A stretch of 64,000 nucleotides of DNA from a virus, in the IMG/VR virus record IMGVR_UViG_3300037502_002304, positions 1 to 64,000 of that record; one strand, given 5' to 3'. Shown here in pieces: positions 42,486-55,376 of this stretch. Position 1 is the first letter of the stretch; each line of letters opens with the position of its first letter. Under the pieces are notes generated by a model. The model was not told the origin of the DNA, ran no database searches, and saw only the letters and a program-made list of their open reading frames with translations. The translations under genes and the position numbers were made by a program.

Positions 42486-43127
42486 TTATTTCTTTAAGTT
42501 AAACAAAAATTCATTTAAAGTTTTTACATCATAATTTAACTTACTTTCTCCAATTCTATTTTTAGAAGTATTTCTCCTATATACTTCTAGATTAATTACT
42601 TTTCTAGGAGTAAAAGTTAAATTAAATAATGTATCAGCTCTTTTACTTTTTTTAGGGGAAAAAGGTTTTATCTTTTGGATATAAATTCCAGCCTTATCAT
42701 ATAACCATTTTTGTTTGTATGGAAATGAAATACTACTACTAGTATTCTTTTCATAATAAGCTTTTATTTCTACATAAGAAATAAATTTTCTTTCTCCATC
42801 TTCTTCTACTGTAGTATTTACTCTAAATGGAATATCTCTTACATTACCTTTTATAGGCACTTCAGTATTTAAATAAAATATATTTTCAGCCTTTTTATTC
42901 CATAAAATAGAGAAGTCAGCAGTAATACTGGCTTCCCTTAATAAATGTTCTGATTTTACAACTGTCTTACCTCTGACATTTTTATAATAATAATTTACTA
43001 CTGGCTCACTAAGAGGAAAAGTATTTACTTCATATCCCCAATCTTTTACAAATCCAGCTTGTTTTAATTCTTCTAAATAATAAGAAAAATACTCTTCTTC
43101 CCTAGACTTAAAATCATAATCAATCAT
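42486..43127 (-). CDS. putative PD-(D/E)XK endonuclease (DUF1064-like)
   Basis: FKSREE, YE, TADF, VEIK and K.K pattern. Confidence 0.5.
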   Translation of the reverse strand: MIDYDFKSREEEYFSYYLEELKQAGFVKDWGYEVNTFPLSEPVVNYYYKNVRGKTVVKSEHLLREASITADFSILWNKKAENIFYLNTEVPIKGNVRDIPFRVNTTVEEDGERKFISYVEIKAYYEKNTSSSISFPYKQKWLYDKAGIYIQKIKPFSPKKSKRADTLFNLTFTPRKVINLEVYRRNTSKNRIGESKLNYDVKTLNEFLFNLKK

Positions 43128-43998
43128 CTGAATCCTCCTCTTCTAAATAATTCTCTGCATTACTATTATATCTCTTATTATATTCATCTACAGAAAAAGC
43201 AATTCCTAAATATTTAGAAATAGCTCTTACATACCTTAAATGAGTTGTAGTACCTCTTTTCATTCCTGGTGCAGTATTAATTTCTAATACACGAGCTTCT
43301 CCTGTATTTGAATTATATGCAATATCTACTGCACCAAATACTAATCCAAGAGCAGGAATAGCAGCTAATGCTACCTCTTTTACTATATCTGGAACTTCTA
43401 TTCCCTTCCTACAAAATGACCAACCTTTTTTAAAGTTTCTAATATATTTAGATTCTTCAGTAATAACTATATTCTTTTCTGCACGTCTACTGCTAGACAT
43501 TTTCTTTTTCTGTACAGCATCTATTACTTCTCCATTAAATACATGAATCCTATACTCAGCATCATTTTCAAAATATTCTGTATATAATTTAGCATCTACT
43601 AACTCATCTTCAGTAGTAGCTAATACAATACCTTTACCTTCTTTACTAGATACTAAAGTTCTACAATAAATTATTTTACCATTTCTAATAGCTTTGGCTG
43701 CATCTTTCTTTTTTAGATAAAAAGTTACATGAGGTACATCACTTAACTCTAAGTTAATAAGAGTCTTAATTTTATTAGAAGCTAATGCTACATTTTCAGG
43801 TCTATTTATAATAATTATATCAGCATTACCACGTCTTAAAGCAGGGGCATCTCCTGCATACCCCCAATTTAATACAACATGTCCAGTTCTTGGGATATAA
43901 TTTCTATTTGGATATATTCTTTTACATTTAAAATGTCTTGAAATAGCCTTAGAAGATAGACTATTCATTTTGTAAGGAAGAACTTTTAAATTTCTCAT
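43120..43998 (-). CDS. ATP-grasp peptide ligase
   Basis: NWG, ASNK, GKGIV, EYRIHVF, IRN, FGAVDI and LEINTAPG motifs. Confidence 0.85.
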   Translation of the reverse strand: MRNLKVLPYKMNSLSSKAISRHFKCKRIYPNRNYIPRTGHVVLNWGYAGDAPALRRGNADIIIINRPENVALASNKIKTLINLELSDVPHVTFYLKKKDAAKAIRNGKIIYCRTLVSSKEGKGIVLATTEDELVDAKLYTEYFENDAEYRIHVFNGEVIDAVQKKKMSSSRRAEKNIVITEESKYIRNFKKGWSFCRKGIEVPDIVKEVALAAIPALGLVFGAVDIAYNSNTGEARVLEINTAPGMKRGTTTHLRYVRAISKYLGIAFSVDEYNKRYNSNAENYLEEEDSDD

Positions 43999-44023
43999 AG
44001 TAGTTTATTTAAAAAGATTTAAC

Positions 44024-44437
44024 TTATTTATATATATTTAAATATACTAAACAAATTGCCATTCGAGATTTATTAGTGCTAGTATACTTTTTAACTTCAA
44101 CCTTGTCATAATAAGGTTTAAGTTTTTCTAATATAGTATCTAAATATTTTTCTCTAACATCAATTGCCATTATTTGTTTACCTACATACTCTTTGAGTAA
44201 TGACATAATTTTGTCAATATACTCTTGTTTCCTGAGATTAACAAGTGATTCAATATTTCCTACAGTAAATAATTGACAATTTAATGTTGGATCTACTGTG
44301 ACTAATATACTAACATAATTAGCATTTAAAAATATTATTTCTCCAATATAAGGAAAATATTTATGTTTCCATTCAAATACTATTTCTACATCTTGTGTCA
44401 TTTTAGTAATATTTAAATTATATAAGTTTTTCGTCAC
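44024..44437 (-). CDS. hypothetical protein, tandem paralog A1
   Basis: Shares PT.NCQL...G, GK.I..ID.R..YLD, .PY..K...KKYTSTN.S.M..CL.YL with 44418..44810; start may be internal (MTQD). Confidence 0.7.
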   Translation of the reverse strand: MTKNLYNLNITKMTQDVEIVFEWKHKYFPYIGEIIFLNANYVSILVTVDPTLNCQLFTVGNIESLVNLRKQEYIDKIMSLLKEYVGKQIMAIDVREKYLDTILEKLKPYYDKVEVKKYTSTNKSRMAICLVYLNIYK

Positions 44438-44810
44438 TTAAGTATAATAAACATAAAACCATTTCAGACCCATTAGTACTTGTATATTTCTTAATGTTTA
44501 TTTTATTACAATATGGCTGTACTAATTTCTCCATTTTATCTAAATAGAATTGTCTAATATCTATTAATACAATATTTTTACCAATATGATATTTAATTTT
44601 TTTAAAAATCTGTCTAACTATATCTGGAAATTCTTTTAATTCTAAAAGTTCTTCACTTCCTCCTAAAGAACATAATTGACAATTAAAAGTAGGAGAACTA
44701 TATACTGTTAGAATAATATCGAAAAAAGGATCATGTTCTATAGTTATTTTTCCTGCACTAATTGGGCCAGTAACCCATTCAAATTTTACATTATTAATAG
44801 AATCTCTCAT
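44418..44810 (-). CDS. hypothetical protein, tandem paralog A2
   Basis: See 44024..44437. Confidence 0.7.
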   Translation of the reverse strand: MRDSINNVKFEWVTGPISAGKITIEHDPFFDIILTVYSSPTFNCQLCSLGGSEELLELKEFPDIVRQIFKKIKYHIGKNIVLIDIRQFYLDKMEKLVQPYCNKINIKKYTSTNGSEMVLCLLYLSDEKLI

Positions 44811-44811
44811 A

Positions 44812-45495
44812 TTACAATAATTTTAATTCTTGATCATAATATTTTTTAACTAATCCTACTAAATTTTTAAAATCAAATTCCCATAATCTACCTTTTCTAG
44901 CAGCATATGAAGGATGTTCTGCTTCTAGAATGATATGAGCATTTGAGTTTATATATTGTTTATAATCCTGTGCATTCTTACCCCACAAACAGAATATTAA
45001 TCCACTGTTATATTCTGATAGTCTTTTAAGCACTTCAATAGTAAACCATTTCCAATACTTAAAATGACTTTCTGGCTCACCTTTTTTCACAGTTAAAGCA
45101 GTATTATATAAAAATATACCTTGGTTAGCCCAATGTATTAAATCCTTTTTAAACTCTCCTTCATAATTAAAATCGTATTCTACACGTTCTTTTATTTTTC
45201 TGAGAGAAGGACTTAATCCATTAGAAGATAAATCATTAGAGAAAGCTAATCCATTAGCTCTATTATTTGGATAAGGGTCTTGGCCTAATATAACTACTTT
45301 TAAATCATCATAATTTGTTAATTTAAAGGCATTAAATACCTTATTTTTCTCTGGAAATATTAATCCTTTATTTACTTTATACTCTTTACTCAAAGAGTCT
45401 AAAATCTTATAAAAATCAGTAGATAGTAATATAGGACTTAACATCCTATACCAACTACCTACTAATTTTTGTGCAAATTCTTTACTAACTTTCAT
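44812..45495 (-). CDS. ung: family 1 uracil-DNA glycosylase
   Basis: KVVILGQDPYP, GLAFS, PSL, WANQG, LWG and HPS motifs. Confidence 0.92.
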   Translation of the reverse strand: MKVSKEFAQKLVGSWYRMLSPILLSTDFYKILDSLSKEYKVNKGLIFPEKNKVFNAFKLTNYDDLKVVILGQDPYPNNRANGLAFSNDLSSNGLSPSLRKIKERVEYDFNYEGEFKKDLIHWANQGIFLYNTALTVKKGEPESHFKYWKWFTIEVLKRLSEYNSGLIFCLWGKNAQDYKQYINSNAHIILEAEHPSYAARKGRLWEFDFKNLVGLVKKYYDQELKLL

Positions 45496-46920
45496 TCATA
45501 CTATTTCTTTTATTGGAAAATTAAAATTATTTAAATTGTCGCATTTAACATCTAATACTCCTATAAAATCATGATATTTACTTTGATACATATTCATAAG
45601 ATCTTTTCTATACTTTATATAAGCTTTTAAGAACTTATTAAGCATTTTATCTTTATAAATAGTATCTATAATAGAGTTAAGAGTAATATTTTTATTAAAA
45701 GGATTTTCATCTTTAACTCTAAAAGCATATTCTACAATAGCACTGGTAATAAATATCCAAGCAGCTATCTTATCTTTATTAAAAGTACTGTTATGAATTC
45801 TAAATTCTACAGTACCACTACCAGCAAAAGCATAATGATTTAAATTACATATATAATATCTAGAATTAACAGCCCATTTATGCTCATTATATGCATCTAT
45901 AGGATGGCTCATTCCTATATGAAAAGAATCTAAATCTACATTATCAGATGATAGAAATAAAACTATATTTTCTAGATCATGTTCAAAATCATCATAAGTT
46001 ATTAGATTTTTATTTAATGGTTGACAATAATTCTTACCAGTACTTTTAAATAAAGCTGTCCTTTTTAATAATAAAGGAAACATTTTATATATTTCATCCT
46101 GAACTGTACATACTGTTCTATAAAGAGATACTAACATTTCATCAGAGCGGGAATAACCTCCTATATGGACATGTAAACTTTCATCTACACTTCTAGAACA
46201 GTACTTATTCAATAGTTCAGAATGAGTTTTAATAGCTGGAAATACAACATTTTTGTCTAGAATTACAGTAGCATATTCAAAAGAAATACCTCTAGACTTT
46301 CTGAGACTACCATCTTTTACTGGTATTAATCCATTAATTAAACATTTATTTTCAGGGATTTTACCTGCATATGTTTCATATTCTAACCCCACAGTAACAT
46401 TATCTGGTAAAAATTTCCAGAAATGCTTTACTTTAGGTGGATTAAAGTGTTTATTAAAACTGTTGGTAAAACCTTGCAATAATCTATCTGCACTATAATC
46501 AAAGGGGAAATTATAACTTCCCCCTAAAGTTGGTCTATAGAACTTTTTATTTGCTTTATTTTTACGAACAAATATACCAGTTCTTATATCTTCTACATAT
46601 TTACCACTTTTTAATAAAACACTTTCATCATAAAAAATTCCTTCTGAAGGTATAGCAACACTTTTTATAGGATCAAATTTAAAATGAGCATAAACAGGTT
46701 TATCCTTCTTGTAATCAACTATACCTTTTACATGTGCTGCACTCTTTAATACATAATTCTTTACATCATAATCATACACTACTAAATTACTATCAATTCG
46801 ATAATATCGGCCGTTAGGCATTTTAAAGCACTGACGACCGATTTCATAATACTTACCATTATATTTTCTACAATTATCTTTAGGTGCAAGTGTACCATCA
46901 AAAGTTTCTACCATTTCCAT
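45496..46920 (-). CDS. putative amidoligase (GCS-fold COOH-NH2 ligase)
   Basis: VGLEYET, KDGSL, FEYAT, SLHVHIG, RY..N and GTVEFRIHNST motifs. Confidence 0.8.
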   Translation of the reverse strand: MEMVETFDGTLAPKDNCRKYNGKYYEIGRQCFKMPNGRYYRIDSNLVVYDYDVKNYVLKSAAHVKGIVDYKKDKPVYAHFKFDPIKSVAIPSEGIFYDESVLLKSGKYVEDIRTGIFVRKNKANKKFYRPTLGGSYNFPFDYSADRLLQGFTNSFNKHFNPPKVKHFWKFLPDNVTVGLEYETYAGKIPENKCLINGLIPVKDGSLRKSRGISFEYATVILDKNVVFPAIKTHSELLNKYCSRSVDESLHVHIGGYSRSDEMLVSLYRTVCTVQDEIYKMFPLLLKRTALFKSTGKNYCQPLNKNLITYDDFEHDLENIVLFLSSDNVDLDSFHIGMSHPIDAYNEHKWAVNSRYYICNLNHYAFAGSGTVEFRIHNSTFNKDKIAAWIFITSAIVEYAFRVKDENPFNKNITLNSIIDTIYKDKMLNKFLKAYIKYRKDLMNMYQSKYHDFIGVLDVKCDNLNNFNFPIKEIV

Positions 46921-46922
46921 AG

Positions 46923-48752
46923 TTATCCTATTTCTGAAAGTTGTTCTTTAAAATTATTTAACAATTCAATAGTATCTTCAGCTAATTTAACTCCTGGATA
47001 AACATATAAATCATCTATAGTATCATCTATAAAAGACACTACATTAACTATTTCTTTAGCAATTTCTTTCCTAGTCAATTCATCTTCCATACTATCTAAA
47101 TAGTCATTATTATCCTTTTCAGTAGAATAATCTGATCCTAATATAGCTTCTTTCTTTTCTTCATCGGAACTATTGAAAACCTCTTCATAATATTTTTCTG
47201 CAACATCTTCATCTCTACTACAATCATATTCTAAAGCTTTATTAAAATCATCAAAATCTTCAGGATAATATTGTCCTTCATTTTCAGTAACAGTTCTATA
47301 ATCTGCTACTGTAGCTACTGATTCTCTACCACCCCTAATAAGTTTAGAGACTTTACTAAATACAGGATATAACATTCCATTATAAACTATTCTTTCACCA
47401 ATAATTGGATTCCATTCATAATATTTATTGTCTCTAAGATCTAATACAGGATGTAAAGCTATTTTAATTACTTTTTCTGCAAGAAATCTATTCTTCACTT
47501 CATCAGTATAAAACTTTTTATACTTCTTATTATATTTACGAAAACTTTTATGGTCTTTAACCATAATCCCATCTATAAAGTAATATACTTTATGATATGA
47601 AGAATTAGCTAAATCATTAGGTACAATATATCCTAAAGAATTTACGTGATAAATACCATGAACTATTTTATCTTTAATTTTATACCTACCATTTACAAAT
47701 ACTATTCTATTGTCTTCTAAACTAATTTTATCATCAGCAGAAGGTAAAGCTTTATTAGTAGAATTACTTTGAATTGTAGTACTCTGAGTGTTTTTACTCT
47801 TATACCTCATATTCCAGTTAGAATATCCACCATAATTATTATACCAATAGTCATCATAGTCATAACTATGGTTATAATTAAGAAAGCCATTGCCTTGGAT
47901 ATTCTTTCTAGTTATATGAAAATCATCTACTAACTTACCTTCTTTAAAAGTTAATACAGTATTAGCTTCTATTTCTTCAATATTTGGCTCAGCTTCTTCT
48001 GAAATTACATATAATGAATTTTCTACTGAAGAAAACCAAATATTATTTCTTCCTTCATAAATATATAATGGCCGCTCTTCTTCATTATCGTTAGAATATT
48101 TATTCATAGGACTTTCACCTCTAAATAATTTCAAAGTACTGTCCCTGAAATCATACCAAGCTAATGCAGCCCCTCCTTGATATTCTTCTAAAATAGAATA
48201 ATCTTTCTTTACAAGTAACGTCCATAATAATACTTGAGAATCATTAGGGGCATGTTCAATTTTCTTACCCTTATCGTAATAAACTAATTTTTCAGGAACA
48301 TTATATTTCTTCATAAGTTCCTCTTTATTATAAAGAGTACCATTATGAAGTCCCATTCCTATGATATTATCATTCTCATCCCTAATAGCAAAGGGTTGAG
48401 TATATTCAATACCCATAGTTAATTTAGCATTTGCAGAAGTTTTTCTAGTATGACCAAATATAGTTGTCTCATTTTCAATATCAGGGTTTAATCTATAAAC
48501 AACTATATCAGTATATTTTTTGATAGGGCTAGAATTAAAATGTTCATAATATTTTCCTATCATTCTTCCTGCAGCATCACCACCTCTGGGATCATTCATA
48601 ATACCAAGGATATTAAACTTATCCCATTTAAATTTTTTATTAGTCTTACCATGAAATCCCCAGATACCACAATTAAGAGTATCATAATTAGGTTTGAAGA
48701 AATAAGTTATAATCAAATGAACTAACAATGCTACTAAAATAATATTTACCAT
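46923..48752 (-). CDS. class II (Ntn) glutamine amidotransferase with a hydrophobic N-terminal leader
   Basis: CGIWG at residue 28; RGGDAAG, GHTRK, QPF, HNGTL, DSQ and ERPL motifs. Confidence 0.85.
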   Translation of the reverse strand: MVNIILVALLVHLIITYFFKPNYDTLNCGIWGFHGKTNKKFKWDKFNILGIMNDPRGGDAAGRMIGKYYEHFNSSPIKKYTDIVVYRLNPDIENETTIFGHTRKTSANAKLTMGIEYTQPFAIRDENDNIIGMGLHNGTLYNKEELMKKYNVPEKLVYYDKGKKIEHAPNDSQVLLWTLLVKKDYSILEEYQGGAALAWYDFRDSTLKLFRGESPMNKYSNDNEEERPLYIYEGRNNIWFSSVENSLYVISEEAEPNIEEIEANTVLTFKEGKLVDDFHITRKNIQGNGFLNYNHSYDYDDYWYNNYGGYSNWNMRYKSKNTQSTTIQSNSTNKALPSADDKISLEDNRIVFVNGRYKIKDKIVHGIYHVNSLGYIVPNDLANSSYHKVYYFIDGIMVKDHKSFRKYNKKYKKFYTDEVKNRFLAEKVIKIALHPVLDLRDNKYYEWNPIIGERIVYNGMLYPVFSKVSKLIRGGRESVATVADYRTVTENEGQYYPEDFDDFNKALEYDCSRDEDVAEKYYEEVFNSSDEEKKEAILGSDYSTEKDNNDYLDSMEDELTRKEIAKEIVNVVSFIDDTIDDLYVYPGVKLAEDTIELLNNFKEQLSEIG

Positions 48753-48764
48753 AATTTAAAGATT

Positions 48765-49613
48765 TTAATAATTTACACTTTTTAATTTCCTATAAACATG
48801 AGTATTTCTAAGACTACCTGAAAATCCATTAGAAGGTGGTATTTGTTCTACTAAATCTATACCTAGAAAATCATAATCTTCATAAGAAGGTTTCTTAAGA
48901 GACTCTAGTTTTTCACAATTTTCAGCAGAAGAACAATATTCTACTACTTTTTGTACTTGGTTATAAATCCAGAAAGTATATGCTGGATTTCCAAAATATC
49001 CACCTAAAGTACGGAATTCAATTCCATAAGGTGTAGGTCTAAATGCTCCATATGCACCATAATTTTCTCTACGTTGTTTAGTATATGATACTATATCTGA
49101 AGGTAAACTAACAAAATAATCATATGCTCTTGCTAGATACAGATTCATAATCATAGGGTCTACATTATCATCTAATACATCATAACCTAGATGAATATGA
49201 GTTCCTACAGGTCTGTAAAGAGAATCTCCTAATTTAGGTGATTGCTTAGAACATTTTTCCCAAGCATCTATATAACTGCTACATCCAAATTCTTGACCAT
49301 CTTTTGTATAAATAAACCTTTTATCAAATTTAGCTATATCTACAAAATCTATATGAGCTCCAGGTTTTTTAGTTTCAAGCAAAAGATTAATCATAGTAAT
49401 TAAGTAGCTCATATTACTGTAAAATGAGTCTTCAGTACTAGATGGTGGGATATTTCCTTCTATTAAGAGATTATCTTTTAATACAGCAAAACCATTTCCT
49501 TTATCTTCTGGATTTTGTTTAGTACCTTCAATAAACATAAAAGAAGGTAAATATTTATTTTTATATCTGATTACAAATTCAGGATCTGCACCGATAGTTT
49601 TAAATTCTAACAT
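48765..49613 (-). CDS. phiEco32-like COOH-NH2 ligase (type 2)
   Basis: IGADPEF, DNLLIEGNIPP, FGC, GTHIHLG, RRENYG..GAFR and YGIEFRTL motifs. Confidence 0.82.
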   Translation of the reverse strand: MLEFKTIGADPEFVIRYKNKYLPSFMFIEGTKQNPEDKGNGFAVLKDNLLIEGNIPPSSTEDSFYSNMSYLITMINLLLETKKPGAHIDFVDIAKFDKRFIYTKDGQEFGCSSYIDAWEKCSKQSPKLGDSLYRPVGTHIHLGYDVLDDNVDPMIMNLYLARAYDYFVSLPSDIVSYTKQRRENYGAYGAFRPTPYGIEFRTLGGYFGNPAYTFWIYNQVQKVVEYCSSAENCEKLESLKKPSYEDYDFLGIDLVEQIPPSNGFSGSLRNTHVYRKLKSVNY

Positions 49614-49644
49614 AGTTATATATTTTAAAGGTTATTTAAAATTA

Positions 49645-49998
49645 TTAGTCAAAATTAGGTTCTTCCCAAATACCAGTTTCAACTAGTAAATCATAGTTAG
49701 GATTAAGTTCCATGTTATATACATAAATAATAGCTTTACCATATTTAGTATCTACTATCTGTTTATCATATAACTGAGGATAACCTTCTAATCTATCTAA
49801 AGCATCCAGACCCTCTTGGTTATCTACATCATAGACTTCGATAGATATACTACCATCTCCTGGTTTAATTCCAGGAAAGGCTCCTAAATTATACATATCA
49901 AAGCCTTTAATTCTATCTGTACCTAGATATTTATAAGGCCTAATCAATTCGTGATTGTAGAATCCCCTTTTTAATGAACCATAAACTGCTACTAACAT
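49645..49998 (-). CDS. gamma-glutamylcyclotransferase (AIG2-like)
   Basis: VAVYGSLKRG..NH, EVY and LDRLEGYP motifs. Confidence 0.88.
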   Translation of the reverse strand: MLVAVYGSLKRGFYNHELIRPYKYLGTDRIKGFDMYNLGAFPGIKPGDGSISIEVYDVDNQEGLDALDRLEGYPQLYDKQIVDTKYGKAIIYVYNMELNPNYDLLVETGIWEEPNFD

Positions 49999-50016
49999 AA
50001 TTATAAATTTTAATTA

Positions 50017-50511
50017 TTAACTATTAAAAACAATTCTTCTTGTGAAAAAATTTTCATTTAAAGGAATATCATTTAAAGTAAACTTCTTACTTTTTAAAGC
50101 TAATTTTACTATTTGACCAAAGCTAGGACCATGTTTTAAATAATCTTTATTTAAATATACACTACTATAGTCGCCAGAATTTATAAAACTTGTTATACCA
50201 CTATATCCGTATGGATCATGTGTGATTGTTAATTTTTTAATTTCATCACAATAATATATACGAATATTAGAATTCCTTTTATCTAATAACATTCTAGCTA
50301 ATTCTCCTTTGGTAATAGTTTTAAATTTAGACTTCATTAACCAATAAATATCCATAAAACTCCTACCTTTTGTAGGATAACATTGAATACGATCATTATC
50401 TACATAATAAGTAGCTTTAAAATATCTGTCTGATTCATTAGGAAAAAAACTAAATAAATATTCTTTTTTAGTTTTAATATCTTTACCTTCCTTATAATAT
50501 ATTTTTCTCAT
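50017..50511 (-). CDS. hypothetical protein, tandem paralog B1
   Basis: Shares KKE, TYY...R.QCY....RSF, FKT.T..ELA..LLDKR.SNIR.YYCD and SFIN with 50524..51012. Confidence 0.7.
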   Translation of the reverse strand: MRKIYYKEGKDIKTKKEYLFSFFPNESDRYFKATYYVDNDRIQCYPTKGRSFMDIYWLMKSKFKTITKGELARMLLDKRNSNIRIYYCDEIKKLTITHDPYGYSGITSFINSGDYSSVYLNKDYLKHGPSFGQIVKLALKSKKFTLNDIPLNENFFTRRIVFNS

Positions 50512-50523
50512 GATTATTAAATA

Positions 50524-51012
50524 TTAAAATACATCTGGATTCAAATTAATATCATCATAAGTAAAATCTTTATTTTGTAATGCCAATTGTAACACATCTT
50601 CAAAAGTTTCTCCATATTCATGAAAATACTCATCTAAATGCATAGAATATTCATGTCCTTCTGCATTTATAAAACTCGGAATAGCTGAATACCCATGATT
50701 AGTAGTTACCATTAACATTTCAACATCATCACAATAATACATTCTTATATTAGAATGTCTTTTATCTAGTAAAATTTTAGCTAATTCTTTTCTAGTAGCT
50801 GTTTTAAATCTGGTTTTAAATAGCCAGAATAATTCCCTAAAACTTCTTGCTGCTTTTCGGTAGCATTGTAACCTATTTGTATCTGAATAATAAGTTTCAG
50901 GAAAAAAACCTCTATTTTCATTTGGCAGAAGTTTTAAAATAAACTCTTTTTTTGAACGAGCCTTTATATTTTTGCAATAAATCCTTTCTATTGGATAATC
51001 TTTTTCACTCAT
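50524..51012 (-). CDS. hypothetical protein, tandem paralog B2
   Basis: See 50017..50511. Confidence 0.7.
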   Translation of the reverse strand: MSEKDYPIERIYCKNIKARSKKEFILKLLPNENRGFFPETYYSDTNRLQCYRKAARSFRELFWLFKTRFKTATRKELAKILLDKRHSNIRMYYCDDVEMLMVTTNHGYSAIPSFINAEGHEYSMHLDEYFHEYGETFEDVLQLALQNKDFTYDDINLNPDVF

Positions 51013-52028
51013 AATCCTATTTCTTTTAATTGTTCTTTAATTAATTTTAAAGACTCCTCTTTACCGTTAAAATAATAATAATCAGAAATATCCTTTAGCA
51101 TACTTCCAGTATTAATATAAGGAATATTAAATTTTTCCTCTAATTTTTTAGAGAATTTTATACCAGCATCATCAAAATCATAGAATGTAACTATATGATT
51201 AAATCTACTTTTAAATTCTTTAATCAAAGAATCTTTAAACTCATAGTTTTCTGATTGAGGTGCAACAAAATTATAACCTAAATCATGCAAGCACATTCCA
51301 TCTTTTAATGATGAGGCTATGAATAATAATTCTCCTTTTTCTGGAAGTTGTTCGTAACCACTTAATGTATTCGGTAAAAAGCCACTAATCCATTTTAAAA
51401 CTTTACTTTCTGGTTGATAAACTTTAAATCTAATTACATTGTTTTTATTCTCTACATAAGCATATGCTAAAGGATCTGCTTTAATTACATCATCATTAAT
51501 AAATATATATAGTAGAGGTCTAACCCGATACTTTTTTAAAGTATCTAGGCTTACTCCATATGATTTCCAATACTCCACATCTCTCCTACGCCACTCTCTA
51601 CTTTTAATATTTAAAGAAAAGTGCTTCTCTAATTTTTTATAATCAATATTTTTATGAACTTTAGGATTTTTACTAGAACTTCTAGTTCTTATAGTATCTA
51701 TATAAAATTTATCTTGTAGGTTAAAATCTACTATTATTTGTTCAAGAGCTTCTCTATAATTTAAATGAAATAAGTTCTTTACAAAATGAATAGAATCCCC
51801 TTTATCTCCTGTAGCTAAATCATGATAAAGTATCTTATTTGAATATTTTCTAGAAGTATAAACAGAAAATGAAGGGTGGTTGTCTTTTCTTAATGGTGAA
51901 TGATTTACACCATTTATAGTTACTTCAGGAAAGTAATATTTAAATATATCATAATCACTTATGAACTTATAAATATTTTCTTCACTAACTTGTAATTTAG
52001 GATTAAATCTTTCATCTCTTAAATCCAT
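51009..52028 (-). CDS. DNA primase (crAss-type, TOPRIM)
   Basis: SPLRKDNHPSF, KVYQP, SSLKD, APQSE, YDFDDAG and KDISDY motifs. Confidence 0.8.
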   Translation of the reverse strand: MDLRDERFNPKLQVSEENIYKFISDYDIFKYYFPEVTINGVNHSPLRKDNHPSFSVYTSRKYSNKILYHDLATGDKGDSIHFVKNLFHLNYREALEQIIVDFNLQDKFYIDTIRTRSSSKNPKVHKNIDYKKLEKHFSLNIKSREWRRRDVEYWKSYGVSLDTLKKYRVRPLLYIFINDDVIKADPLAYAYVENKNNVIRFKVYQPESKVLKWISGFLPNTLSGYEQLPEKGELLFIASSLKDGMCLHDLGYNFVAPQSENYEFKDSLIKEFKSRFNHIVTFYDFDDAGIKFSKKLEEKFNIPYINTGSMLKDISDYYYFNGKEESLKLIKEQLKEIGL

Positions 52029-52041
52029 AGTTATAGTAAAT

Positions 52042-52071
52042 AAAAAAGGGCAGCCATTATGGCCACCCTTT
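52042..52071 (-). terminator. intrinsic terminator
   Basis: - strand AAAGGGTGGCCATAATGGCTGCCC followed by TTTTTT. Confidence 0.7.
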
Positions 52072-54755: not shown

Positions 54756-55376
54756 TTATTTTACAATTACTCTATAATCTTCTCCTATATACCCCCCAGA
54801 TAATCTAAATTTTACTTCTGAAGGCAGATATTGTTTTCTTAACTGCCTTATCATAGCTTTTATCGTTCTAGGATGAGAGACATTAGTATGAGTTGGATAA
54901 TACATTGAAGTATGTACCCATCTTCTTGTTTTCTTATTATATTCCCAATCATAAGACTCTGGACTTAACCACCATTCTTTAAATGGTGAATAGGGTTTGT
55001 TATGAAGTGGGAACTCTGTTATTTTAGGAATTTTACGAATAATGATTTTCCTGTTTTGTCTATAGTCTTCTGGAAGTTTCACAGGAAACTCTTTATTTTT
55101 AAATTCATTATAAGTTTTCTGACTGTATACATCTTTCATCCGTTTTTGAACAAATTCAAATGGACAGTTTTGGATGAGGTAAATATCCACCCAATTAGGT
55201 GTGTTCATAATCGGACGTTCTTGCGTAAAATCTTCCTCTCCCCACCAGTCAAACACATAGTCCCCTATACATTTCTTAAAACCATCAAAGAAGACTACAA
55301 CTTGTTCACTGGCCCAGCTCTTGAATTTAATATATTCTTCATATGAATCTGTATATGTTTTGTCAATTCCTGCCAT
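54756..55376 (-). CDS. hypothetical protein
   Basis: 206-aa Trp-rich ORF. Confidence 0.6.
   Translation of the reverse strand: MAGIDKTYTDSYEEYIKFKSWASEQVVVFFDGFKKCIGDYVFDWWGEEDFTQERPIMNTPNWVDIYLIQNCPFEFVQKRMKDVYSQKTYNEFKNKEFPVKLPEDYRQNRKIIIRKIPKITEFPLHNKPYSPFKEWWLSPESYDWEYNKKTRRWVHTSMYYPTHTNVSHPRTIKAMIRQLRKQYLPSEVKFRLSGGYIGEDYRVIVK

Follow-up and report, generated by a model that had tools for sequence, protein, structure and literature searches.

Genes at the locus

The window is a 64,000-nt stretch of viral DNA, positions 1 to 64,000 of the IMG/VR record IMGVR_UViG_3300037502_002304. Its minus strand carries a string of eleven co-oriented genes separated by gaps of no more than 31 nt (Table 1). 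The string encodes a GGACT-family cyclotransferase, a phiEco32-type COOH-NH2 ligase, a class II amidotransferase, an Amidoligase_2 protein, a RimK-like ATP-grasp ligase, a family-1 uracil-DNA glycosylase (UDG) and two tandem pairs of small paralogs, here called families A and B. From the primase gene to the open reading frame past the ATP-grasp gene, the successive spacings are -4, 12, 18, 31, 12, 2, 0, 1, 16, 25 and -8 nt. The 16-nt spacing becomes a 20-nt overlap if the second family B gene is read from the GTG at 44437, which lies within its neighbour; the ATG at 44401 is most likely the start. All of the genes described in the original prediction are present in this interval on the minus strand, and each enzyme that it named is borne out by family or profile matches. 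Near-identical strains (mostly 95–99% at the nucleotide level) from four other studies are represented by contigs spanning nearly the whole region. One of these covers most of both B genes, and others cover parts of both A genes.

Table 1. Positions of the genes and other features in the window
Feature	Position	Strand	Basis or remark
213-aa gene	42486..43127	-	overlaps ATP-grasp stop by 8 nt; no family match found
RimK-like ATP-grasp amide ligase, 292 aa	43120..43998	-	phrog_2599 2.1e-54
Family B paralog 2, 125 aa from ATG at 44401	44024..44401	-	25 nt upstream of ATP-grasp gene
Family B paralog 1, 130 aa	44418..44810	-	paralogy to 44024 gene
Family-1 uracil-DNA glycosylase	44812..45495	-	NF003592 178 bits (cut-off 162), 2e-52; TIGR00628 1.3e-50
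Amidoligase_2 (glutamine-synthetase-fold carboxylate-amine ligase), 474 aa	45496..46920	-	PF12224 38.3 bits (cut-off 22), 1.8e-9; phrog_2443 5.4e-29
Class II (Ntn) glutamine amidotransferase, 609 aa	46923..48752	-	PF13522 28.1 bits (cut-off 27) / PF13537
27-codon hydrophobic leader ahead of Cys28, putative propeptide or membrane tether	48672..48752	-	hydropathy and homologue comparison
phiEco32-type COOH-NH2 ligase (GCS2-like carboxylate-amine ligase), 282 aa	48765..49613	-	PF14395 38.3 bits (cut-off 25), 1.2e-9; phrog_3815 1.2e-41
GGACT/AIG2-family gamma-glutamylamine cyclotransferase-like enzyme, 117 aa	49645..49998	-	PF06094 76.5 bits (cut-off 22.8), 3.4e-21
Family A paralog 2, 164 aa	50017..50511	-	18 nt upstream of GGACT
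Family A paralog 1, 162 aa	50524..51012	-	overlaps primase stop by 4 nt
DnaG-like primase, conserved upstream anchor of cassette	51009..52028	-	phrog_12622 4.3e-44
Terminator-like hairpin, 12 pairs and T tail	52045..52071	-	just upstream of primase start; consensus scan only, 8 sites vs 3.4 expected
206-aa gene outside the originally described interval	54756..55376	-	no match in Pfam or PHROG

The hairpin beside the primase gene may bound the transcription unit containing the cassette. At the other end, the 213-aa gene has a homologue (~55% identical) in the same position in loci L005 and L006 and is kept in the nearest clade only, making it a possible lineage-specific cassette member. In the nearest relatives, the homologue of the 206-aa gene is located within the cassette and separates the COOH-NH2 ligase gene from that of the amidotransferase. 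A relationship of this gene to class I amidotransferases was considered and rejected (hhalign probability 0.1).

Ligases and cyclotransferase

Judged from alignments, residues of catalytic type are kept in all five enzymes. The GGACT protein matches YtfP (PDB 1xhs, 1.7e-14), and its Y6, G7, L9, E71 and Y77 are kept in at least 85% of 40 homologues. The COOH-NH2 ligase, whose Pfam family is titled 'Phage phiEco32-like COOH.NH2 ligase-type 2', has conserved E12, E52, N54, H139, E199 and R201 (55 homologues); sequence searches find no relative of solved structure. In the Amidoligase_2 protein E180, E182, D203, E215, H250, H252, E372 and R374 are conserved (48 homologues).

The ATP-grasp enzyme shows K76, E148, R150, K164, D225, E239 and N241 as invariant or nearly so in 46 homologues. 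It matches Pfam ATP-grasp models below their cut-offs only, and its best NCBIfam models, MptN (1.6e-10) and the RimK family (8.5e-9), are matched far under cut-off, with scores of 35–40 bits against cut-offs of 143–350 (35 against 143 for the RimK family). The top PDB matches of its profile are alpha-L-glutamate ligases and RimK (7qys, 1.1e-11; 4iwx, 3.6e-9), and LysX is a weaker match than the RimK-type ligases. The enzyme has its top NCBIfam and solved-structure matches among the RimK/LysX/MptN/CofF alpha-L-glutamate ligases, with which it shares the ATP- and Mg-binding residues. However, no S6-like or LysW-like substrate gene with an acidic tail is recognised at this locus.

The amidotransferase and its leader

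The amidotransferase domain (approximately residues 28–290) is fused to a conserved C-terminal region of ~320 aa that has no match in PDB or Pfam and resembles no known synthase domain. The profile of the protein matches PurF (4e-19) and GlmS (7e-11), and the conserved Cys aligns with the mature N-terminal Cys of these enzymes. C28, R56, G57, H101, R103, N137, G138 and D171 are conserved, so that the N-terminal-nucleophile Cys and the R, N-G and D residues are shared with the PurF/GlmS class. Apart from its unmatched acceptor domain, the protein differs from this class in a leader of 27 residues that is hydrophobic enough for a membrane helix (Kyte-Doolittle 19-residue maximum 2.44, at residue 1). 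Inspection of the sequence shows no start codon beside the Cys codon. By hydropathy this is the sole TM-like N-terminus in the cluster, and the other proteins look soluble.

Some PurF enzymes carry a propeptide that is removed ahead of the Cys, and the residues before the Cys of the present protein would likewise need removal. Met stands immediately before the catalytic Cys in 34 of 54 homologues, which therefore need no leader. The remaining 20 lack this Met, and 18 of them have a hydrophobic leader of 22–31 aa.

Paralog families A and B

Both paralog pairs are related far beyond chance, the A pair with 45% identity over 157 aa (E 2e-49) and the B pair with 38% over 117 aa (E 3e-26). Their bracketing of the enzymes, part of the original prediction, holds in this genome only; in relatives A and B lie elsewhere within or near the cassette.

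Family B comprises 35 proteins at E<=0.01. Among 27 sequences N43, C44, Q45, D84, Y109, S111, T112, N113 and M117 are invariant, forming the signature NCQ...D...Y-x-STNGS-x-M. The ESM Atlas model of paralog 1, of modest confidence (pLDDT 0.63), resembles GNAT clusters (TM 0.59–0.68), and no Pfam GNAT model is matched. In 14 of the 18 B-bearing loci no more than 25 nt separate B from the ATP-grasp gene, and this junction is kept across two different gene orders. The distance from B to the ATP-grasp gene exceeds 5 kb in three B-bearing loci, and in one genome ~47 kb separate B from the COOH-NH2 ligase. All 13 contigs selected by B carry ligase genes (the COOH-NH2 ligase in 12, the amidoligase on the 13th, a 5-kb fragment). 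The slot of B is also filled by an unrelated family, h330; there are 18 B loci and 9 h330 loci, with none shared. The original prediction took the duplicated genes as possible substrate carriers or specificity factors. The many invariant polar residues of B suggest a pocket for catalysis or a ligand rather than a passive carrier, and the family most likely partners the ATP-grasp ligase in catalysis or ligand binding.

Family A paralog 1 has no match in Pfam, PHROG, NCBIfam or PADLOC. A profile search recovers 129 representatives at E<=1e-3, 126 of them confirmed with the family HMM, with T, QC, RSF-x-DL and C conserved throughout. A lies directly upstream of GGACT here and in 7 of 19 A-bearing loci, and in a single predicted protein (P0015) an A domain is fused to GGACT. 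Three A-A fusions and arrays of 4–5 copies also occur, and many A copies lie 2–5 kb upstream of the primase, apart from the ligases. The most likely role of family A is in the removal step, as its adaptor, regulator or protein substrate.

Distribution and insertion site

The likeness to the phiEco32 set claimed in the original prediction holds both in tblastn searches of GenBank phage records (314 for the COOH-NH2 ligase and 312 for the ATP-grasp enzyme, with a nearly equal split by organism) and in the annotated loci of cr108_1, Bas90 and CVT22. The same search finds neither A nor B in any of 50,697 GenBank phage records. Among 51 IMG/VR loci chosen by the COOH-NH2 ligase, the class II amidotransferase is present in 47, ATP-grasp in 45, Peptidase_C26 in 43, the primase (adjoining or near the cassette) in 42, the amidoligase in 39, GGACT in 38, A in 19 and B in 18. 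Peptidase_C26 is absent in the present lineage, whose pathway may consequently differ.

The cassette occurs in 11 of 43 evaluable loci selected by the primase, and the other 32 run from the primase directly to exonuclease and UDG genes. In crAss-like phages the cassette is an optional element, inserted where the primase gene is followed by the UDG/exonuclease genes. As raw locus counts that ignore kinship among phages whose cassette-bearing members may be one clade with A and B there for unrelated reasons, A is found in 8 of the 11 cassette-bearing and B in 4 of the 11, against 0 of 32 cassette-free loci for either. These counts speak for the original reading: in the loci and genomes covered, neither family is spread independently of the ligases, both having been found only where the cassette is present. 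The UDG has the GQDPY and HPS motifs. It does not belong to the system; it is a core replication gene that cassette-free primase-selected loci carry too.

Comparison with known systems

The phiEco32-type amidoligase cassette is reportedly to be attributed to Iyer, Abhiman, Burroughs and Aravind in 2009. The cassettes of Escherichia phage SkaterBoy_Bas90, Citrobacter phage CVT22 and uncultured crAss-like phage cr108_1 share with the present locus the same five enzyme families in a single co-oriented early block beside the primase. In contrast to these, the present cassette lacks the Peptidase_C26/class I amidotransferase, has the additional small-protein families A and B and a leader on the amidotransferase, and follows a different gene order with the UDG inside the block. 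The enzymes are only ~30% identical to their counterparts in proteobacterial phages.

The butirosin pathway provides a working analogy only. In the making of the butirosin side chain, BtrJ is an ATP-grasp gamma-glutamyl ligase, BtrI a carrier protein and BtrG a GGACT-like gamma-glutamyl cyclotransferase, and BtrJ and BtrG together are a worked precedent for a removable gamma-glutamyl protecting group. Here too small proteins are encoded alongside an ATP-grasp ligase and a member of the GGACT family. However, A and B have no detectable sequence relation to acyl carrier proteins, genes for a PLP decarboxylase, monooxygenase and acyltransferase are absent, and the locus belongs to a phage rather than an antibiotic cluster.

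Proposed function and alternatives

The interval is the crAss-like-phage variant of the phiEco32-type amidoligase cassette, a block of early/replication-module genes, and its enzymes probably act in series, with A and B as cassette partners. From the chemistry of the families, the five enzymes would work one after another in the cytoplasm. The ligases would build a short glutamate- or glutamine-derived amide-linked chain on a non-DNA acceptor, a carboxylate would be amidated with ammonia from glutamine, and GGACT would take off gamma-glutamyl as 5-oxoproline. By analogy with butirosin, the gamma-glutamyl may be a removable protecting or activating group. The amidotransferase would be made as a proenzyme, possibly held at the membrane by its leader until this is cut off to free Cys28. 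B would assist the ATP-grasp ligase, A would serve the removal step and the UDG would play no part. The original interpretation is partly supported as a whole, and the building and removal of glutamyl or amide modifications that it predicted fits the family chemistry. In line with it, a literature search found no reported product, and the available text of PMC10580990, PMC6256558 and PMC10945688 offers proposals only.

Alternatively, the substrates of the ligases may be peptidoglycan or other envelope precursors in the cytoplasm, to which they would add amino acids or whose amino acids they would amidate, perhaps in superinfection exclusion or lysis tuning, with the leader tethering the amidotransferase near lipid-linked precursors. 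Peptidoglycan-precursor amidotransferases, ATP-grasp ligases and GNAT-fold Fem transferases are established enzymology, and the TM-like N-terminus on the amidotransferase alone is consistent with such a role. An envelope role is also an existing proposal, credited in the available text of PMC10580990 and PMC6256558 to Iyer et al. 2009 and Hardies et al. 2013. However, none of the genes has a Mur-ligase, Fem or envelope-enzyme signature, the remaining proteins look soluble, and most amidotransferase homologues (34 of 54) have no need of a leader. An envelope target is conceivable rather than probable.

It seems unlikely that the RimK-like ligase and its partners put glutamate-type tails on a host or phage protein, or build a product on A or B as a LysW- or BtrI-like carrier, with release by GGACT or the Ntn enzyme. 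The glutamate on which GGACT acts is gamma-linked rather than alpha-linked, the A and B alignments show no conserved acidic C-terminus of the LysW/S6 kind, and the ten invariant polar residues of B better suit a pocket than a passive carrier. The solved structures best matched by the ATP-grasp profile are nevertheless RimK-type protein glutamate ligases, with LysX matching less well. B adjoins the ATP-grasp gene, and A is a neighbour of GGACT and, in one protein, its fusion partner. Moreover, the arrays and A-A fusions of family A are common for substrates and precursors, and the available text of Burroughs et al. 2015 (PMC4431377) argues that related ATP-grasp enzymes of phages act on proteins.

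The cassette could also be an auxiliary metabolic module that acts on no macromolecule and instead produces or recycles a nitrogen metabolite such as a gamma-glutamyl peptide or polyamine. Each of the enzyme families has members in gamma-glutamyl pathways (glutathione, polyamine, ergothioneine). PMC10945688 proposes that this gene set serves nitrogen metabolism in a different phage; its available text presents no enzyme-level evidence. The cassette sequence is virus-specific and set among early and replication genes, and the co-distributed A and B are hard to fit into plain metabolism, so this explanation is doubtful.

The paralog pairs could instead be unrelated neighbours, for instance small early proteins for host takeover or anti-defence, that have a lineage and an insertion hot spot in common with the enzymes but not a function. 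Many A and some B copies do lie kilobases away from the ligases, searches gave neither family a sequence or profile link to any enzyme family, and the co-occurrence counts take no account of phylogeny. However, A and B are missing from all 32 cassette-free loci of otherwise syntenic phages, the B–ATP-grasp junction survives two gene orders, the A–GGACT fusion exists, and B and h330 share one slot without ever co-occurring, which makes mere adjacency improbable. Hypermodification of nucleotides or DNA with amino-acid groups is very unlikely: the cassette adjoins the primase in crAss-like, phiEco32-like and CVT22-like phages and is flanked here by UDG and exonuclease, but the cluster has no base-modifying, kinase or glycosylase-like transferase family, and cassette-free relatives have UDG and exonuclease equally, so that adjacency reflects the insertion site.

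The five-enzyme phiEco32-type phage amidoligase cassette, with its predicted making and removal of glutamate-type amide bonds, is already known. New here are its optional insertion site, the confinement of A and B to cassette loci, the B–ATP-grasp junction and signature, the link between A and GGACT, the missing Peptidase_C26, the 27-residue leader and the standing of the UDG as a bystander.

The cassette and its genomic setting

The core of the cluster at 43120-51012 (minus strand) is, judged by its predicted proteins, the already known phiEco32-type phage amidoligase cassette, which comprises a COOH-NH2 ligase, an Amidoligase_2 protein, a class II amidotransferase (GATII), a RimK-like ATP-grasp ligase and GGACT. 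The predicted gene content of the full virus record (90,011 bp, completeness estimate 82%) is that of a crAss-like phage, and the closest annotated relative for the cluster region is cr108_1, an uncultured crAss-like phage (Crassvirales). All genes from 52028 down to 42486 lie on the minus strand, and intergenic gaps range from -8 to 31 nt. The cluster is flanked by the primase on one side and by a PD-(D/E)XK exonuclease/RtcB on the other, with a helicase and a Sak4-like ATPase upstream. This placement in the early/replication region of a tailed phage genome is one of the features by which the cassette is recognized. The string from primase to exonuclease may be its own transcription unit. A promoter scan of the region returned 145 sites where 120 were expected, a count that is uninformative given DNA of 28% GC. 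A strong terminator-like hairpin at 52045-52071 (minus strand), with 12 pairs (6 G-C) and a T tail, occurs between a 199-aa gene and the primase start.

Genes of the string from primase to orf213 (a 213-aa gene), in order of transcription
Gene	Position	Strand	Remark
Primase	51009-52028	-	first in string; upstream of A1
A1 (family A)	50524-51012	-	
A2 (family A)	50017-50511	-	
GGACT	49645-49998	-	
COOH-NH2 ligase	48765-49613	-	
Class II amidotransferase	46923-48752	-	
Amidoligase_2	45496-46920	-	2-nt gap to amidotransferase
UDG	44812-45495	-	
B1 (family B)	44418-44810	-	
B2 (family B)	44024-44401	-	up to 44437 if GTG start
ATP-grasp ligase	43120-43998	-	
orf213	ends at 42486	-	213 aa; ends string; overlaps ATP-grasp stop

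The original prediction had assigned the enzymes to families and noted two tandem pairs of small duplicated genes. All of the enzyme assignments are borne out by matches to family models, and both pairs are real: the copies of family A, near the primase, share 45% identity (E 2e-49) and those of family B, near the ATP-grasp gene, 38% (E 3e-26). The whole record has no further copy of either family.

The likeness to a phiEco32-like set, also mentioned in the original prediction, is upheld by the locus of Bas90, a phiEco32-like coliphage, which shows the same enzyme set beside the primase. The annotated loci of Citrobacter phage CVT22 and crAss-like cr108_1 have this set beside the primase as well, and the ATP-grasp/GGACT part of the string has tblastn homology to Bas90 and CVT22 proteins. 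Among 50,697 GenBank phage records, tblastn gave 314 matching records for the COOH-NH2 ligase and 312 for the ATP-grasp enzyme, with a nearly equal split by organism for the two queries (Pseudomonas ~120, Escherichia ~93, Vibrio 22). The cassette also occurs in many uncultured phage contigs. A megablast search of GenBank phages with the 7.9-kb interval, an IMG/VR scan that used the COOH-NH2 ligase as its single protein query, and PADLOC on 10 proteins all returned no match.

Passages of PMC10580990 and PMC6256558 propose a role in cell-wall or peptidoglycan modification, which they attribute to Iyer et al. 2009 and Hardies et al. 2013, and a passage of PMC10945688 proposes a role in nitrogen metabolism without enzyme data. 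Literature searches, in which Iyer et al. 2009 and Hardies et al. 2013 were represented by the passages citing them, found no published report of the cassette product, and they found no paper on the cassette in crAss-like phages.

Conserved residues of the enzymes

Matches to family models clear their cut-offs for the COOH-NH2 ligase (PF14395, 38.3 bits, cut-off 25; phrog_3815 at 1.2e-41), Amidoligase_2 (PF12224, 38.3 bits, cut-off 22) and the amidotransferase (PF13522, 28.1 bits, cut-off 27). GGACT matches PF06094 at 76.5 bits and E. coli YtfP at 1.7e-14, with the YGSL and Glu positions kept. The Glu/His/Arg sets of Amidoligase_2 and the COOH-NH2 ligase, the two ligases of GS/GCS fold, are kept across 48 and 55 homologues, respectively; searches of the PDB by sequence and profile gave no solved relative of the COOH-NH2 ligase.

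The ATP-grasp ligase matches phrog_2599 at 2.1e-54. Its score against TIGR00768 (RimK family alpha-L-glutamate ligase) is 35.2 bits, far under the curated cut-off of 143.4, and by that rule the enzyme is a relative of the RimK family and not a member. As a single sequence it found no match in the PDB; only the profile search matched, and the best matches were RimK-type alpha-L-glutamate ligases (7qys, 1.1e-11; 4iwx, 3.6e-9). Residues K76, K164, D225, E239 and N241, aligned with the RimK structures, are invariant or nearly so across 46 homologues and supply the ATP-binding Lys and Mg-binding D...E-x-N of the superfamily.

In the amidotransferase profile the conserved Cys aligns to the mature N-terminal Cys of PurF (4e-19) and GlmS (7e-11), and the Arg, Asn-Gly and Asp positions are kept. 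From these residues the cassette enzymes look active. The UDG (NF003592, 178.2 bits, cut-off 162), with readable GQDPY and HPS motifs, is an ordinary family-1 enzyme.

The catalytic Cys of the amidotransferase is residue 28 and has no start codon adjoining its codon. Met directly precedes the Cys in 34 of 54 Cys-aligned homologues; in the other 20 a different residue stands there, and a hydrophobic leader of 22–31 residues with a shared pattern is present in 18 of them. Among the proteins of the cluster, the window amidotransferase alone has a TM-like N-terminus, namely its leader. Since the leader precedes Cys28 without an adjoining start codon, processing would be required for Ntn catalysis. 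Removal of the leader may be autocatalytic, and the leader may tether the proenzyme to the membrane.

The crAss-like version of the cassette

The crAss-like accessory set of the cassette is new. Family counts are based on 51 IMG/VR loci selected by the COOH-NH2 ligase. These contain GATII (47/51), ATP-grasp (45/51), Peptidase_C26 (C26; 43/51, identity confirmed by Pfam), primase (42/51), amidoligase (39/51), GGACT (38/51), family A (19/51), family B (18/51), UDG (16/51) and h330, an unrelated family (9/51). In crAss-like phages the genes usually run primase, GGACT, ATP-grasp, B(-B), C26, C26, ligase, amidotransferase, amidoligase, (UDG), exonuclease. Peptidase_C26 is common to most relatives but absent from the window record, and whether it counts as defining for the phiEco32-type cassette is our own judgement. 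The Peptidase_C26/class I amidotransferase models PF07722 and PF00117 match nothing in the record of 82% estimated completeness, while controls matched in 14/14 genomes.

The nearest IMG/VR relatives share 55–66% amino acid identity for most enzymes and ~41% for the amidotransferase. They preserve the entire order, which runs primase, A, A, GGACT, x125, ligase, x205 (a 205-aa family), amidotransferase, amidoligase, UDG, B, ATP-grasp, orf213, orf68, exonuclease. They have a single B copy and two extra small genes, whereas the window has two B copies. The window homologue of x205 sits outside the cassette, at 54756-55376. A class I amidotransferase identity for this 205-aa family was ruled out (hhalign probability 0.1).

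In some loci the position following the ATP-grasp gene, occupied by B in others, is taken by h330 (230–335 aa), seen in cr108_1 (L001 6424-8343) and in loci L032, L034-L036, L039, L045, L049, L051 and L065. It is tandemly duplicated in cr108_1 and L049, and a Pfam scan of one member (L034) gave no match. None of the 51 loci has both h330 and B. The amidoligase gene is present as two ORFs ~1 kb apart in several loci (L016 7174-9683, equal to L027 13210-15719; L015 80-2589; L060/L116; L043), a split that could represent an intron, a homing-endonuclease insertion or a frameshift. The COOH-NH2 ligase of one relative (L008 4871-6130, equal to L070) likewise consists of two ORFs, with a gap of ~420 nt.

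Families A and B travel with the cassette

The original prediction had named co-occurrence of the paralogs with the ligases as a check, and this was run on an independent sample of 80 loci, retained from at least 592 that were picked by primase. Of the 80, 43 with at least 4 kb downstream of the primase were evaluable and 37 with less were set aside. The cassette is present in 11/43 loci, and the remaining 32 run from primase to exonuclease/UDG without it. Both families were found only in cassette-bearing loci: A in 8/11 and 0/32 cassette-free loci (Fisher p 1e-6, kinship ignored), and B in 4/11 and 0/32 (p 0.003, kinship ignored). Contigs picked by B agree with this, as all 13 carry ligase genes. 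The COOH-NH2 ligase is present in 12, in three of which it was found by whole-record search (~47 kb away in one); the 13th is a 5-kb fragment bearing amidoligase.

In 14 of 18 B-bearing loci no more than 25 nt separate B from the ATP-grasp gene, with B downstream of that gene in the order seen most often and upstream in that of the window. Family B consists of 35 proteins at E<=0.01, none with a Pfam match, and 27 sequences share the invariants N-C-Q, D and Y-x-S-T-N-G-S-x-M. An ESM Atlas model of B1 (pLDDT 0.63) gave TM scores of 0.59–0.68 to GNAT clusters in 9/10 rows; the Pfam and NCBIfam models gave no GNAT match. Searches of the PDB by sequence and profile gave a single chance match (E 1), and tblastn of B1 against 50,697 phage records gave none at E<=1. 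A search for fused B forms among proteins of 337 aa or longer, above the range of 233–337 aa, found none, which is weak evidence against such fusions. In the family tree, from which contig-repeating loci and identical sequences were left out, the two window copies fall in a starred 6-row clade with single-copy relatives; the branches of the tree are long, and the two copies may or may not stem from a recent duplication. We read B as a probable partner of the ATP-grasp ligase.

Family A has 126 confirmed representatives of ~140 aa, with conserved T, Q-C, R-S-F-x-D-L and a second C. An A gene immediately precedes GGACT in the window and in 7 of the 19 loci that have the family. The representatives include three A-A fusions and one protein (P0015) in which A is followed by a linker and GGACT; an IMG/VR scan with P0015 gave no match. 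Elsewhere A copies form arrays a few kb upstream of the primase, the largest with five genes. In a complete 102,862-bp phage record (L076 7304-16534 and L153), five A genes lie in the 10 kb on the upstream side of the primase, and the full cassette, B included, lies downstream. A C-terminal extension of ~85 aa is common to the second A copy of the nearest relatives (L005 10467-11162) and the representatives P0004 and P0006, and does not occur in the window copies. A second A subfamily is found in one IMG/VR locus only. A word-indexed protein search with A1 returned A1 alone, tblastn of A1 against 50,697 phage records gave no match at E<=1, and sequence and profile searches of the PDB gave chance matches only (E above 1). 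Comparison by hhalign among A, B, x125, x205, orf213 and h330 showed no relation (probabilities <=0.5). We read A as a probable partner or substrate of the gamma-glutamyl removal step.

Related strains and their sources

Near-identical contigs (mostly 95–99% identity to the window) from four other studies, of landfill, fertilizer, compost and digester metagenomes, span nearly the whole region. A single contig covers most of both B genes, and contigs cover parts of both A genes. In a fertilizer-metagenome strain (run X4, 5,707-nt contig) there are 433 extra letters between UDG and B1 (window 44807-44816), enough for another small gene, possibly a third B copy. One subsurface metagenome, the probable source, and two landfill metagenomes each contain at least half of the sampled words of 43120-51012; smaller shares come from metagenomes of fertilizer, compost, anaerobic digesters and bioreactors. 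No RNA run is listed for the interval. To judge by these records, the crAss-like phage is environmental and not derived from a gut sample.

Possible function

With gene content, conservation, cassette identity and the co-distribution of A and B as observed, the pathway would involve serial ATP-dependent amide ligation of glutamate- or glutamine-type units onto an acceptor; the Ntn enzyme would carry out an amidation, and GGACT would take off gamma-glutamyl groups. A peptidoglycan precursor, a protein or a small molecule is each a plausible target, and DNA is the least likely.

A more specific proposal, which we consider improbable, is that the phage encodes a carrier-based assembly line for amides of which A and B are dedicated protein components, B acting with the ligase and A as scaffold or substrate. 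B, with its invariant Cys/Asp/Ser-Thr-Asn pocket, would then be a subunit that the RimK-like ligase cannot do without, or its partner in acyl transfer, and multi-copy A would carry the gamma-glutamyl-linked group during its construction, after which GGACT would release it. Such a role for A would explain its arrays, the A-A fusions and the fusion with GGACT. If true, this assembly line would represent a protein-templated chemistry of the LysW/BtrI type that has so far not been described for any virus, and would provide the first handle on the product of the cassette of 2009.

The cassette, with more than 300 GenBank phage records, is among the most widespread phage enzyme sets lacking a reported product. 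Its crAss-like version offers concrete handles in B, which is 'genetically welded' to the ATP-grasp ligase; in multi-copy A, linked to and once fused with the enzyme predicted to remove gamma-glutamyl groups; and, third, in an amidotransferase that would need processing from a hydrophobic leader. Since crAss-like genomes that are otherwise syntenic may have or lack the cassette at one fixed site, it appears to be a host-interaction accessory and not a replication function.
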